Sequence record: MN850590.1
Source of the DNA: Escherichia phage moha
Reading direction: 5' to 3' (one strand)
Length of the DNA: 64,000 nucleotides
A program made the translations under genes and the position numbers. The notes beneath the pieces were generated by a model. It worked only from the letters and a program-made list of their open reading frames with translations, was not told where the DNA came from and searched no databases. Shown piece after piece: positions 8,801-35,983 of this stretch (position 1 is the first letter of the stretch; the number at the start of each line of letters is the position of its first letter).

Positions 8801-9277
8801 ATGAAGGTTAAGATCGCTGATACTGCTCGGTACTCGTTGAAACAAGATCCAGGTCAAATAAAAGAAGACGTTGTTCGACGTTGTAAGGTTGCAGTCTTTG
8901 CAGAGTATGTAGTAGCAAATTGGCTAGACGGATATGTTAATAAAGGTAATGAAGACGTAGAAGACCCGTACACGTATGCATGGGACGTTTTAGCTCATCC
9001 TAAGTACTGTGGTCTACGCGTAGAAGTAAAGACCCATCAGATGGATTCGAAATGGATTTCGGTTACCACAGGATACGGTGGTGATTATCCGGGTGGCAAC
9101 GGAATAAACATAGGGCCCTTCCTTAATCATCGAGTCGCTGACTGTATTATTATATTGAATGTCAAAGAAACCTCACCTGACGTCTTCTCTTATTCTATAA
9201 AGTTTGTGGGAGACCATGAAGACCTAAAGAAAATCGTCCGCAAGAGCAACTACAACGGGTGGTATCTTCATCTTTAA
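8801..9277 (+). CDS. hypothetical protein (T4 denB-position; identity unconfirmed)
   Basis: Listed ORF 8657..9277; N-terminal 48 codons look out-of-frame-like and overlap the upstream ORF, so start placed at ATG 8801 (159 aa). Confidence 0.45.
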   Translation: MKVKIADTARYSLKQDPGQIKEDVVRRCKVAVFAEYVVANWLDGYVNKGNEDVEDPYTYAWDVLAHPKYCGLRVEVKTHQMDSKWISVTTGYGGDYPGGNGINIGPFLNHRVADCIIILNVKETSPDVFSYSIKFVGDHEDLKKIVRKSNYNGWYLHL

Positions 9278-9289
9278 TTTCATAAAAGT

Positions 9290-9319
9290 GTTTACAACTA
9301 AGTAGGACTATGATATATT
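9290..9319 (+). promoter_or_regulatory. early promoter: -35 GTTTAC, -10 TGaTATATT
   Basis: GTTTAC 9290-9295, TATATT 9314-9319; palindrome TAGGACTA/TAGTCCTA 9303-9326. Confidence 0.5.
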
Positions 9320-9345
9320 AGTCCTATCTAAAAGAGGATAACATC

Positions 9346-9609
9346 ATGAAATTTAAATTTTTCTACGCAAAACATAAAGTAACAGGCGAATTTGTTTCAA
9401 TGTACAACACTGCAGATGACGAAGGGATGATTTATACCCATTTGGGTCTATCTCATTGGGACTCAGACGTGCCTTATATGTCATCTGAAGCCGAAATAAC
9501 TCGTTTAGTTAACGGACATATGAACGACCATTTTAGTGTTATTCTTTCTAAAGACCTTAAAGAGGTTATCAACAAAGGATATATGGAACTTGCGGAAGTT
9601 GAGATATGA
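9346..9609 (+). CDS. hypothetical protein
   Basis: 87 aa ORF with GAGGA RBS downstream of early promoter. Confidence 0.55.
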   Translation: MKFKFFYAKHKVTGEFVSMYNTADDEGMIYTHLGLSHWDSDVPYMSSEAEITRLVNGHMNDHFSVILSKDLKEVINKGYMELAEVEI

Positions 9610-9692
9610 GCTCTAAAATGTGGATCGGAATATGGTTGCTTAGTATCCCTATGATTTGTATAATATTTTCAATTGCATTGAGGTACTTATGA
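9606..9692 (+). CDS. hydrophobic micro-protein (28 aa)
   Basis: ATGA start/stop overlap with upstream ORF; MSSKMWIGIWLLSIPMICIIFSIALRYL is a plausible single TM helix; below ORF-track cutoff. Confidence 0.35.
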   Translation: MSSKMWIGIWLLSIPMICIIFSIALRYL

Positions 9693-9796
9693 AAAATGCA
9701 CTTATTGTATTAAGAACAATTTGTGATACGGGTTTTTACATTGCATGTTCGTTCACTGGAACATGGATGGCTTTAACATATTTTAATGTAATTTAA
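9689..9796 (+). CDS. hydrophobic micro-protein (35 aa)
   Basis: ATGA overlap with preceding micro-ORF; MKNALIVLRTICDTGFYIACSFTGTWMALTYFNVI. Confidence 0.3.
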   Translation: MKNALIVLRTICDTGFYIACSFTGTWMALTYFNVI

Positions 9797-9798
9797 TT

Positions 9799-9828
9799 GT
9801 TTACATCACGGTAGGATTATGGTATAGT
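9799..9828 (+). promoter_or_regulatory. early promoter: -35 GTTTAC, -10 TGgTATAGT
   Basis: GTTTAC 9799-9804, TATAGT 9823-9828; palindrome GTAGGA/TCCTAC 9811-9836. Confidence 0.5.
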
Positions 9829-9856
9829 AGTCCTACTGAAACATGAGGAACACAAA

Positions 9857-10057
9857 ATGGCTAAGCTTTTTAAAGATGTTGAAATTGGTGAAAAATTTGT
9901 TCTGAATAATGGTCAGCAGCTTATTCGTGTAGCTTCTATCGCCGGACAAACTCATAACTGTATCGCCCCAACGTGTTGGACTCGATTCTTTATTGAAGAT
10001 GACACTGAATGTTTAACTGTTGAAGAGCTTTTTGAACGTTCTGATATGACCGAATAA
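9857..10057 (+). CDS. hypothetical protein
   Basis: 66 aa ORF with GAGGAA RBS after early promoter. Confidence 0.55.
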   Translation: MAKLFKDVEIGEKFVLNNGQQLIRVASIAGQTHNCIAPTCWTRFFIEDDTECLTVEELFERSDMTE

Positions 10058-10060
10058 AAT

Positions 10061-10089
10061 TGTACAAACTCTTGAGAGCAGAGTATAAT
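10061..10089 (+). promoter_or_regulatory. early promoter: -35 TGTACA, -10 TATAAT
   Basis: TATAAT 10084-10089; palindrome GAGAGCA/TGCTCTC 10074-10095; upstream of ndd. Confidence 0.5.
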
Positions 10090-10133
10090 GCTCTCATGGA
10101 TTACAAAAACATTAATCAATTGAGGAAATTAGC

Positions 10134-10580
10134 ATGTCCAAATATTTAACTCGTAAAGACCTTCTGGCAGTTGGCGGTGAAGTTGTTGCAGTAGTTCGTA
10201 ATGGCGAATACGGTTCTGAAGTTTCTAAAGAGTTTCGTTCTCGTGAAGGTTTTTACTTCTTCGTTAAAGGTTCATCTGATTGGCGACAAGTAGCAGCACG
10301 ATTCTTTGTAGGACGTCAACGTTCTAAACAAGGGTTGGATGCAATTCTTTCTCACATTCGTCAAGGCCGTTCGCAACTAGCCCGTACCATGGGCACTAAC
10401 AATATTGAATATGATGTAATCTTTGTTGCAGCTAAGAACATGAAACCACTGACCACTGGTTATGGTAAAGGTCAATTGGCTCTGGCATTCACTCGCAATC
10501 ATACATCAGAATATCAAACACTCACCGAAATGAACCGTCTTCTGGCCGATAATTTCAAATTCATTCTGCAGAGTTACTAA
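10134..10580 (+). CDS. ndd: nucleoid disruption protein Ndd
   Basis: 148 aa; strong recalled similarity to T4 Ndd ([11 protein letters not shown]...[14 protein letters not shown]...LADNFKF); position between rIIB and 52. Confidence 0.85.
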
Positions 10581-10632
10581 TTTATACGGACCTATTAAGT
10601 TGGGCCTTTAATTTATTTTTGAGGTAATTAAA

Positions 10633-10779
10633 ATGGTAGCATGGATTATTGCATTGCTGTGTTGGTCGTTTTTATTCGTTAACACTTTAGTTACGGGCGA
10701 AACAACAGTATTTCAACAGGCCGTATCACAAGGTACCTTAGCGGTCTTAGCTCTTATTAACGTGTTAAAAGGCGAGTAA
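10633..10779 (+). CDS. small membrane protein (T4 ac-position)
   Basis: 48-codon ORF, hydrophobic (MVAWIIALLCWSFLFVNTLV...); not in ORF track. Confidence 0.35.
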   Translation: MVAWIIALLCWSFLFVNTLVTGETTVFQQAVSQGTLAVLALINVLKGE

Positions 10780-35543: not shown

Positions 35544-35954
35544 ATGAAAGATATCGCCGCCGAATATTCCTTTATTAAATATACAGAATTGGAGCTATTA
35601 GAAGATGCAACAATTAAAACAGTTGATGTCCCTAATAAGAAAAATGTCATATATGCTATTGCTATAGATGACGAACTTGTGTATATTGGTAAAACCAAGA
35701 ATTTAAAGAAACGCATTAACTATTATCGAACAGCCATAAATCGAAAAGACCAGACTTCAGATTCAAGAAAATCACTTATGATTTTGGATGCCTTAATGCA
35801 AGGCAAAAAGGTTGAATTCTGGGCCCGCCAATGTTTTGACCTTTCAGTCACCAACGAACTTGGTTCAATGACCATCGCAACAATGGACCTTGAAGAACCG
35901 CTTTTTATCAAAAAGTTCAACCCGCCTTGGAATATCCAACATAAGAAAAAGTAG
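35544..35954 (+). CDS. denA: endonuclease II (GIY-YIG family)
   Basis: 136 aa = T4 DenA; GIY-YIG-like VIYAIAIDDELVYIGKT; synteny after nrdB. Confidence 0.8.
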   Translation: MKDIAAEYSFIKYTELELLEDATIKTVDVPNKKNVIYAIAIDDELVYIGKTKNLKKRINYYRTAINRKDQTSDSRKSLMILDALMQGKKVEFWARQCFDLSVTNELGSMTIATMDLEEPLFIKKFNPPWNIQHKKK

Positions 35955-35983
35955 TTTACATACCACAAGGATTGTGGTACAAT
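35954..35983 (+). promoter_or_regulatory. early promoter upstream of rnlA: -35 GTTTAC, -10 TGgTACAAT
   Basis: GTTTAC 35954-35959, TACAAT 35978-35983; palindrome CCACAA/TTGTGG 35963-35977. Confidence 0.5.

Follow-up and report, generated by a model that had tools for sequence, protein, structure and literature searches.

A probable early cassette of Escherichia phage moha, bracketed by PeSL-type repeats, with an ortholog of T4 Ndd.6 and a Mosigvirus-specific micro-gene

Two micro-ORFs of 28 and 35 codons in Escherichia phage moha (sequence record MN850590.1; the whole 64,000-nucleotide stretch that was analysed is called the window) are read here as the second and third genes of an early three-gene cassette, in which an early promoter is followed by ORF87, micro-ORF1 (Ndd.6) and micro-ORF2, the three genes are translationally coupled, micro-ORF1 specifies a membrane peptide, and PeSL-type repeats bracket the whole; we put the probability of this reading at about 0.8. 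ORF87 extends over 9346–9609, micro-ORF1 over 9606–9692 and micro-ORF2 over 9689–9796, all on the plus strand. The TGA of ORF87 overlaps the start of micro-ORF1 in an ATGA at 9606–9609, and a second ATGA at 9689–9692 joins micro-ORF1 to micro-ORF2; a preliminary description of this DNA had both coordinates and overlap geometry exactly right. Both ORFs are in all likelihood real micro-genes that are translated, and both are accessory.

The window belongs to a Mosigvirus, an RB69-like T-even phage, with 95–99.5% identity to 152 Mosigvirus genomes (megablast). The unit ORF87/micro-ORF1/micro-ORF2 lies between denB and ndd.1/ndd, in synteny with the T4 order rIIB-denB-ndd.6-ndd.5...ndd-ac-52.1-52 and in a region where host-interaction genes (rIIB, denB, ndd, ac) abound; stp is absent from the window. 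The window's ac and 52.1 ORFs have Kyte-Doolittle values of 2.19 and 2.52. T-even early promoters at 9291–9319 and 9800–9828 bear out the earlier placement in a T-even early region.

Both promoters lie in 54-nt direct repeats on the plus strand (9273–9326 and 9782–9835) that are 78% identical and each combine an early promoter with an inverted repeat; a search with the repeat motif returned 2 exact copies against 0.01 expected. The upstream cassette carries a -35-like TTTACA (9291–9296) and a -10 box TATATT (9314–9319) with TG extension (scan score 10/12), and its inverted repeat TAGGACTA-N8-TAGTCCTA at 9303–9326 overlaps the -10 box. The downstream cassette carries TTTACA (9800–9805), TATAGT (9823–9828) and the inverted repeat TAGGATTA-N8-TAGTCCTA; its early promoter drives ndd.1 (9857–10057). 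PeSLs are defined as a repeated intergenic motif made up of an early promoter, a stem-loop that lies between the promoter boxes or overlaps them, and then a Shine-Dalgarno site and start codon, flanking accessory ORFs (PMC2839356; PMC4122927), and both moha repeats have this structure. They share with the PeSLs of Arbiol et al. 2010 (PMC2839356) and Comeau et al. 2014 (PMC4122927) the TTTACW-N17-TAYWAT-type promoter and the stem-loop overlapping the -10 box, as well as the bracketing of small accessory ORFs whose presence varies between related phages; the moha stem (TAGGAYTA/TAGTCCTA) is lineage-specific, unlike those described, and RB69-type phages are not among the phages treated in these two papers. 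Transcription termination at the stem-loops, and excision of the cassette by recombination between the repeats, may be envisaged, consistent with gene content in the slot differing among genera.

ORF87, the first gene of the operon, encodes 87 aa of the RB69ORF270c family (phrog_2390, E = 1e-42 by profile search), has a Shine-Dalgarno dG of -5.8 and shows a dN/dS of 0.04–0.10. It is modelled as a soluble alpha/beta protein (AF2, pLDDT 89). The model had no neighbour in the PDB (nothing with E < 0.3), its matches in BFVD were uncharacterised T4-like phage proteins only, and Pfam and NCBIfam searches with ORF87 returned nothing; these structural comparisons therefore offer no functional clue for the operon.

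Micro-ORF1 encodes MSSKMWIGIWLLSIPMICIIFSIALRYL (28 aa) and, from its sequence and position, is to be regarded as the ortholog of T4 Ndd.6, a gene already catalogued. It matches phrog_8851 with E = 1.9e-10, residues 1–28 aligning to profile positions 1–28 of 28, and T4 Ndd.6 (ndd.6, T4p275, UniProt P39248) matches the same family with E = 1.6e-17; the Smith-Waterman score between the two peptides is 84, against 25.3 +/- 5.3 for 5000 shuffles (z = 11.1). Both are 28 aa long, with about 50% identity, and both lie between denB and ndd, directly after an ORF87 homolog or its remnant, before the ndd genes and in an early-promoter context; they are alike also in the ATGA overlap upstream and the GAGGT-ATGA junction downstream. 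T4 differs in that a 237-nt in-frame deletion has cut the upstream ORF87 to an 8-codon leader, which is still ATGA-coupled to ndd.6. Ndd.6-type ORFs were found in 757 phage records, which fall into four genera (Mosig-, Tequatro-, Dhaka- and Gelderlandvirus), with the core W-x3-W-x3-IP-x-IC-x2-F (W6, W10, I14, P15, I17, C18, F21) invariant in all four. A degenerate pattern of this core, run against 596 Gb of genome sequence from bacteria and archaea to detect host homologs or mimicry, gave no bacterial homolog; the 71 scattered matches are near the chance level by our own order-of-magnitude estimate (a few dozen), many contain stops and none is a short MSSK-type ORF. Pfam and NCBIfam searches with micro-ORF1 and micro-ORF2 likewise returned nothing.

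Substitution patterns point to purifying selection on micro-ORF1. Within Mosigvirus, pairwise comparison puts its dN/dS at 0.07 and site counting at 0.16 (p = 0.05); between Dhaka- and Gelderlandvirus sequences, where dS is unsaturated, Ndd.6 gives 0.02–0.24. It is the least variable part of the locus, with 7% variable columns as against 13–25% in the two promoter-bearing intergenic stretches; most substitutions are synonymous, and the peptide motif is retained at about 60% nucleotide identity. In one T4-like contig (L017/L043), ndd.6 is frameshifted at its 3' end.

The start signals are best read as those of translational coupling, in agreement with the preliminary description. Upstream of micro-ORF1, within the end of ORF87, stands only a weak Shine-Dalgarno-like stretch, GGAAGTTGAG (9594–9603, plus strand), whose duplex with the anti-Shine-Dalgarno sequence (-3.6 kcal/mol) is at the 20th percentile of all window ATGs; such a weak site fits initiation that depends on a terminating ribosome. 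An ATGA overlap by itself says little, since 10 of the 62 plus-strand ORFs of at least 80 aa in the window end in ATGA; conservation is what lifts the finding above chance, micro-ORF1 being kept in four genera and micro-ORF2 in 150/152 Mosigvirus records. The 4-nt overlap at the ORF87/Ndd.6 junction (ATGA or TTGA) is kept in Mosig-, Tequatro- and Dhakavirus, and ATGA at the junction of Ndd.6 with the downstream gene in Mosig- and Tequatrovirus. Where the start has changed from ATG to TTG, in Dhakavirus, the Shine-Dalgarno site is much stronger: dG is -7.1 to -12.9 kcal/mol in each of the six distinct versions with a TTG start, and -2.7 to -3.6 in ATG-overlap versions. TTG must be the start in L010 and L021, since these hold no in-frame ATG, and such co-variation of start codon and Shine-Dalgarno strength makes sense only for translation. 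The Gelderlandvirus copy of Ndd.6 is monocistronic and has an early promoter to itself, together with an AAGAGGT Shine-Dalgarno site. In one metagenomic contig an amber codon, at W38, interrupts ORF87, which would abolish the coupling.

Micro-ORF1 probably resides in the inner membrane as a single helix. With a transmembrane segment taken as about 19 residues of mean Kyte-Doolittle hydropathy at or above 1.6, its best 19-residue mean is 2.49 (residues 7–25), in the top ~2.5% of all 25–60-aa ATG ORFs in the window, and its invariant transmembrane residues cluster on one helix face (R = 0.59, p = 0.025, for 7 positions only). The first reading of both ORFs as single-TM-like is thus sound for micro-ORF1; for micro-ORF2 it is borderline, the best 19-residue mean of 1.45 falling below 1.6 in a segment that contains R9 and D13, and the uncharged C-terminal 22 residues being only moderately hydrophobic. 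In databases, Ndd.6/phrog_8851 bears the label "predicted outer membrane protein". An outer-membrane protein or lipoprotein was taken to have either a lipobox [LVI][ASTVI][GAS]C where the hydrophobic stretch ends or a cleavable signal peptide ahead of a mature domain; micro-ORF1 has neither, and about 10 residues remain after Cys18. A lipoprotein reading of this invariant cysteine was considered and rejected, the -1 residue being an invariant Ile in all four genera. The label is presumably a legacy localisation prediction and finds no support in the present analysis.

Several bacterial membrane proteins of this kind, AcrZ, MgrB, MgtS, KdpF and CydX, are single helices of some 30–50 aa or fewer, of which a conserved face binds a larger membrane protein. 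By analogy Ndd.6, with its conserved helix face, may resemble these small inner-membrane regulators; it differs from them in being phage-encoded and shares no sequence relationship. Within its own locus, T4 Ac, gp52.1 and Stp are also small early products, of unrelated sequence, Ac and gp52.1 being hydrophobic; saDelta9 lacks all three. Genetics has assigned phenotypes to Ac (acridine resistance) and Stp (PrrC activation), but none to Ndd.6 or Ndd.5.

Micro-ORF2 encodes MKNALIVLRTICDTGFYIACSFTGTWMALTYFNVI, 35 aa, where most relatives have 36 aa. Its sole PHROG match is phrog_18561 (E = 2.4e-26), it is confined to Mosigvirus (152 records), and an exhaustive HMMER search of 1.84e9 representatives retrieved its own cluster only. 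Its Shine-Dalgarno site GAGGT (9680–9684, plus strand) lies within the final codons of micro-ORF1, the conserved Arg codon AGG among them, and with dG -6.9 kcal/mol ranks in the top 2.5% for all ATGs of the window. By position micro-ORF2 is the counterpart of T4 ndd.5 (T4p274, UniProt P39247), without detectable homology: comparison with T4 Ndd.5, Ndd.4, Ndd.2 and micro-ORF1 gave z <= 0.9 throughout (Ndd.5, z = 0.9). Both fill the slot after ndd.6, start with MK in an ATGA overlap with its stop, follow a GAGGT-N4/5-ATGA arrangement, encode hydrophobic peptides of 32–36 aa and end just before the next early promoter; Ndd.5 differs in belonging to a separate PHROG family (phrog_5011) and in having a clear TM-grade segment (2.17 vs 1.45).

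Under the cassette reading, ribosomes ending ORF87 at its TGA would re-initiate on the overlapping ATG of micro-ORF1, and the 28-residue peptide would enter the inner membrane as a single helix, the invariant face of which (W6, W10, I14, I17, C18 and F21, with P15 mid-helix) would, on the bacterial analogy, most likely contact a specific host or phage membrane protein. Micro-ORF2 would then be translated from the strong GAGGT in the micro-ORF1 end, across the ATGA overlap, as a lineage-restricted, moderately hydrophobic peptide in the slot that T4 gives to the unrelated Ndd.5.

Data on expression come from T4. Short hydrophobic peptides are poor targets for mass spectrometry. The T4 ndd.5 and ndd.6 transcripts are classed as early, and the two proteins were undetected by mass spectrometry (PMC9697503 Table S2). 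In the literature collection searched, no ribosome-profiling data for T-even phages were found; on the ndd.x genes, ribosome profiling of T4 and screens for small proteins, it yielded just two relevant sources, the Kutter review and the omics tables of Wolfram-Schauerte. The T4 ndd.1–ndd.6 block can be deleted (saDelta9) with a phage yield of about 50%, and in this mutant infection no longer stimulates the synthesis of phospholipids, phosphatidylglycerol included (PMC6071114). Any function of Ndd.6 or micro-ORF2 is expected to be conditional, since the block is dispensable in saDelta9.

It is possible, if clearly the lesser prospect, that only micro-ORF1 is functional, micro-ORF2 being translated through an inherited Shine-Dalgarno site and ATGA while its peptide is effectively neutral; it would then be a young or decaying ORF that occupies the space before the next promoter cassette, with a sequence open to drift or replacement, as in T4 with its unrelated Ndd.5. 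The codon-level selection that the preliminary description named as a check is seen for micro-ORF1 and is weak for micro-ORF2, whose dN/dS of 0.39–0.49 is not significantly below 1 (p = 0.056); it appears weakly constrained, fast-evolving and barely distinguishable from neutral. Its variability is on a par with that of intergenic DNA (20% variable columns vs 25% in the adjoining stretch) and its frame is shifted in two of the 152 records (PECP20 and F2). The same reading gains from its restriction to one genus and one cluster, from the lack of homology to Ndd.5, from Tequatrovirus DNA homology that ends at window position 9695, 6 nt into the ORF (blastn), from the empty slot in Dhaka- and Gelderlandvirus and from the last five codons lying inside the downstream PeSL-type repeat. 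Against neutrality, however, 150 of 152 genomes keep the frame open and a 3-nt CTT indel leaves it in phase; replacements are mostly conservative (L/I, R/K, I/F, L/M, F/L), second codon positions change least and omega has a point estimate below 1, while both frameshifts fall within homopolymer runs typical of sequencing error. That the peptides serve host takeover or superinfection exclusion like T4 Imm and Sp, or counter-defence like rIIA/B, is rather unlikely. An early promoter-proximal position among host-interaction genes, membrane character, variable presence as expected of conditionally useful accessory genes, and the loss of stimulated phospholipid synthesis in saDelta9 (PMC6071114) would fit such a role, of which the preliminary description had named host takeover and superinfection exclusion; yet no Imm or Sp family occurs among the PHROG, Pfam and NCBIfam matches of either micro-ORF, nor any relationship to other characterised families, the T4 ndd.1–ndd.6 block is dispensable at about half yield, and the interval responsible for the saDelta9 phenotype, ~3.4 kb, holds >12 genes, the products being described as unknown. 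A lone label "immunity to superinfection" (Imm), met under one tblastn hit in the related record ESCO10, was discarded as one of several scrambled product names; it stands on the ORF87 homolog.

Membrane-depolarising toxins of the Hok/TisB kind that shut down the host would match the peptides in size (28–35 aa) and hydrophobicity, but this is highly improbable: the ORFs are not covered by any convincing antisense promoter (promoter-like sites on the minus strand occur only at 9400–9371 and upstream), there is no family match and no bacterial homolog in the 596-Gb scan, early depolarisation would harm T-even development, and the invariant Pro/Cys face suggests specific binding, not bulk membrane damage. 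Scarcely credible is an action of the stretch as RNA or DNA, as a structured leader, processing site or recombination spacer with incidental ORFs; AT-rich DNA does readily give short hydrophobic ORFs, and recombinogenic repeats do bound the unit, but an Rfam scan gave nothing above noise (best E 0.24, eukaryotic snoRNA models), the fold energy is no better than that of shuffled sequence (z = +0.5), and the synonymous bias and retained motif of micro-ORF1, like its co-varying start signals, fit translation. A bolder extension of the cassette reading is a long shot: Ndd.6 would be a pan-T-even membrane regulator that clamps one host inner-membrane protein with its invariant face, coupling to ORF87 would fix its dose, and micro-ORF2 and Ndd.5 would be interchangeable, lineage-specific partners swapped by recombination of PeSLs. 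If so, candidate targets would be an enzyme or regulator of phospholipid synthesis, or a membrane-bound defence sensor; the former would explain the loss of infection-induced phosphatidylglycerol synthesis in saDelta9.

As a discovery the two ORFs carry little weight, both being in catalogued phage families and annotated in related RefSeq genomes. They have not been overlooked: micro-ORF1 is T4 ndd.6 (phrog_8851), and micro-ORF2 is phrog_18561, which is routinely annotated. That they fall below the usual ORF cutoffs, as the preliminary description put it, is true only in part: RefSeq RB69 has neither, but most related records annotate micro-ORF2, RefSeq HX01 annotates micro-ORF1, and T4 and T2 carry the latter as ndd.6. 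For annotation hygiene it matters that most of the Mosigvirus records checked, RefSeq RB69 among them, lack the Ndd.6 ortholog and that an unsupported outer-membrane label has been inherited. Selection, overlap, TTG/Shine-Dalgarno compensation and an independent promoter elsewhere together make a clean comparative case for the reality of a 28-codon gene. Ndd.6 is the most widely conserved of the ndd.1–ndd.6 micro-genes and therefore a sensible first candidate in work on the unexplained phenotypes of T4 strains with deletions here.

The 851 bases around the micro-ORFs are 95-99.5% identical to 152 complete Mosigvirus (RB69-like Tevenvirinae) genomes. The gene order of the window (rIIB, small ORF, denB, ORF87, micro-ORF1, micro-ORF2, ndd.1, ndd, ac, 52.1, gene 52) is syntenic with that of T4 (rIIB, denB.1, denB, ndd.6, ndd.5, ndd.4, ndd.3, ndd.2a, ndd.2, ndd.1, ndd, stp, ac, 52.1, 52). 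The stp gene is absent; the ndd-ac gap (10580-10633) is just 52 nt, where T4 has the 26-aa Stp peptide, and the RefSeq record of RB69 also lacks an annotated stp between ndd and ac. ORF87 (9346-9609, plus strand, 87 aa) ends in ...GAG ATA TGA; micro-ORF1 (plus strand, 28 codons, MSSKMWIGIWLLSIPMICIIFSIALRYL) starts at 9606 (ATG AGC TCT...), the A of the ATGA shared with the ORF87 stop, and terminates with TGA at 9690-9692; micro-ORF2 (plus strand, 35 codons, MKNALIVLRTICDTGFYIACSFTGTWMALTYFNVI) starts with ATG at 9689, overlapping the micro-ORF1 stop, and ends at 9796. The sequence is exactly as reported in the preliminary description, namely ORFs of 28 and 35 codons with ATGA stop/start overlaps. 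Such junctions are routine in this genome (10/62 plus-strand ORFs of ≥80 aa end in ATGA), so the overlap by itself is weak evidence and the case must rest on comparison between genomes. A 29-aa TTG-start ORF at 10060-10149, annotated in some relatives (UKE1, NicPhage, FL31) as a hypothetical protein, overlaps the ndd promoter and ndd start and looks like a gene-caller artefact.

By all testable criteria, micro-ORF1 is a member of the Ndd.6 family. It is ~50% identical to T4 Ndd.6 (MSSLWWCFVWLISIPVICLTFTFVMRLL), both being 28 aa, with an alignment score 11 standard deviations over composition-matched shuffles; both match PHROG family phrog_8851 over the full length (E = 1.9e-10 for micro-ORF1, 1.6e-17 for T4 Ndd.6). 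Ndd.6-type peptides were found by tblastn in 757 phage records, and a degenerate DNA pattern built on the shared core retrieved copies from four clades in IMG/VR, named via annotated records as Mosigvirus, Tequatrovirus, Dhakavirus, and Gelderlandvirus. M1, S2, S3, W6, W10, I14, P15, I17, C18, and F21 are invariant across these genera; on a helical wheel, the invariant residues of the hydrophobic segment are clustered on one side (resultant 0.59 vs. random 0.28 ± 0.14, p = 0.025). No other stretch of the Mosigvirus locus varies as little as micro-ORF1 (7% of columns, compared with 13-25% for the two intergenic stretches that carry promoters), whose dN/dS there is 0.07 in pairwise comparison and 0.16 when sites are counted (p = 0.05); between Dhakavirus and Gelderlandvirus sequences, where dS is unsaturated, dN/dS is 0.02-0.24. 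The core pattern, run against 596 Gb of bacterial and archaeal genomes, gave 71 scattered matches, none of them Ndd.6-like, against a chance expectation of a few dozen (an order-of-magnitude estimate made in this analysis). No other micro-gene of the denB-ndd region is as widely conserved as Ndd.6, and the family seems to be restricted to T-even phages.

The preliminary description had called both peptides TM-like, which holds for micro-ORF1 (best 19-residue hydropathy 2.49, TM grade, top ~2.5% of the window's short ORFs) and is borderline for micro-ORF2 (1.45, under the usual TM threshold, with R9 and D13 in the N-terminal half). The label 'outer membrane protein' inherited by Ndd.6 is unsupported: there is no mature domain downstream and no lipobox, since an invariant Ile directly precedes the invariant Cys. 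Ndd.6 would more reasonably be read as a single inner-membrane helix. In one IMG/VR sequence (L017/L043, IMGVR_UViG_2974742932_000001, about 2040-2291 in L017), two extra bases (GG) close to the 3' end of ndd.6 create an 83-aa read-through frame fusing ndd.6 across ndd.5, through either natural mutation or faulty assembly.

The 4-nt overlap between the stop of the ORF87 homolog and the Ndd.6 start is conserved in Mosigvirus, Tequatrovirus, and Dhakavirus. Most Dhakavirus sequences use TTG as the start, in a TTGA overlap (Dhakavirus-type IMG/VR contigs L009, L010, L013-L015, L021, and L022; about 2086-2175 in L009); TTG must be the start in L010 and L021, because these have no in-frame ATG whatsoever. 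All TTG versions follow a strong Shine-Dalgarno (SD) sequence (AAGAGGTG or AGGAGGTG, -7.1 to -12.9 kcal/mol) and the ATG versions, including L011 and L012 of the same genus, a weak one (-2.7 to -3.6 kcal/mol), so that the poorer start codon is offset by a much stronger SD. This co-variation would be difficult to account for without translation of the Ndd.6 ORF. An explanation at the RNA level is unsupported, as the micro-ORF stretch has no match in an Rfam scan and a folding energy not better than that of shuffled sequence (z = +0.5). The weak SD of micro-ORF1 in the window (-3.6 kcal/mol, which ranks at the 20th percentile among all ATGs) is consistent with re-initiation by the ribosome ending ORF87. 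In Gelderlandvirus, Ndd.6 is the sole ndd.x micro-gene kept; it is the only gene between denB and ndd and has an early promoter of its own and an AAGAGGT-N5-ATG site.

Micro-ORF2 shares the slot and junction of T4 ndd.5 (GAGGT, 4-5 nt, ATGA, M-K codons) but fails the sequence criteria for membership of the Ndd.5 family: no homology to T4 Ndd.5 is detectable past the junction (z = 0.9), blastn similarity to Tequatrovirus stops 6 nt inside micro-ORF2, and the PHROG families differ (phrog_18561 for micro-ORF2, phrog_5011 for Ndd.5). It is confined to Mosigvirus (152 records, 86-97% identity; one cluster only in 1.84 billion representatives). The frame is open in 150/152 records, 35- and 36-aa forms differing by an in-frame CTT; the two broken copies, in PECP20 (L053, OQ873415) and phage F2 (L054, MN864145), carry frameshifts in homopolymer runs, of T and of A, respectively. 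Micro-ORF2 has a strong SD (-6.9 kcal/mol, in the top 2.5%) and its amino-acid replacements are conservative for the most part; variability (20% of columns) is at the level of adjoining intergenic DNA, and dN/dS (0.49 pairwise; 0.39 by site counts, p = 0.056) points to weak constraint. Micro-ORF2 is probably translated and possibly functional, but it could be a filler ORF that is young in evolutionary terms or close to neutral.

The full 87-aa ORF87 gene is retained in other T4-like genomes; in T4 itself, 237 nt (79 codons) were deleted in frame between two AAATGAAA repeats. The unannotated 8-codon leader that remains (MKIAEIEL*; T4 L005, NC_000866, 3497-3523, minus strand; compared with sequence L016, 1780-2046) retains both the SD and the ATGA junction to ndd.6 in their original form. 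A metagenomic Mosigvirus contig (L007/L037, IMGVR_UViG_3300029310_000125) has an amber codon in the ORF87 homolog (TGG to TAG, W38*); the micro-ORFs that follow it are undisturbed, and micro-ORF1 would no longer be coupled. ORF87, the leader gene of the coupled set, is confidently predicted to form a small alpha/beta domain (pLDDT 89) that has no neighbour in the PDB, and it yields no functional lead because its BFVD neighbours are only uncharacterised T4-like phage proteins, including those of Citrobacter phage Merlin and Aeromonas phage 44RR2.8t.

ORF87 and both micro-ORFs are exactly bracketed by a 54-nt direct repeat (9273-9326 and 9782-9835, 78% identical). Each copy holds an early promoter, just 5' of ORF87 (9291-9319) and just 3' of micro-ORF2 (9800-9828), both on the plus strand with a sigma-70/T-even early match of 10/12 and a TG extension, as well as TAGGAYTA-N8-TAGTCCTA, an inverted repeat overlapping the -10 box; a weaker copy of the motif lies at 35954-35981. 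Promoter-early stem-loops (PeSLs) lie between or over early promoter boxes, and an SD and a start codon come next; in the hyperplastic regions of T4-type genomes, they border accessory ORFs and bring about the shuffling of these ORFs (PMC2839356; PMC4122927). By sequence, the 54-nt repeats fit this published 'mobile regulatory cassette' definition. The slot holds ORF87, Ndd.6, and micro-ORF2 in Mosigvirus; ORF87, Ndd.6, Ndd.5, and four further micro-genes in T4-likes; ORF88 and Ndd.6, then Ndd.4, in Dhakavirus; Ndd.6 alone in Gelderlandvirus. Such genus-to-genus differences are what PeSL-mediated shuffling would predict.

T4 ndd.5 and ndd.6 transcripts are of the early class and their proteins were undetected by LC-MS (PMC9697503 Table S2), which is unsurprising for hydrophobic peptides of 28-32 residues. 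The T4 saDelta9 deletion takes out 52.1, ac, stp, ndd, ndd.1-ndd.6, and denB; phage yield is ~50% of wild type, infection-induced stimulation of phospholipid synthesis is lost, and the products of ndd.1-ndd.6 are given as unknown (PMC6071114). RefSeq HX01 annotates both micro-ORFs and most Mosigvirus records annotate micro-ORF2; in RefSeq RB69 (L055, NC_004928, 2773-2966, minus strand), both are intact and neither is annotated. Product names are scrambled in ESCO10 (L044, OM386655; denB as 'capsid and scaffold protein', ORF87 as 'Imm'), and the phage F2 record names ndd 'naphthalene 1,2-dioxygenase'. The micro-ORFs are already-known, functionally uncharacterised T-even micro-genes. They were correctly read at the outset as real, probably coupled genes of the early region; the host-takeover or superinfection-exclusion function then suggested is not supported. 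Points of modest interest are how the SD compensates for the start codon, the 8-codon leader that T4 has preserved, the PeSL-bounded cassette, and the breadth of conservation of Ndd.6.
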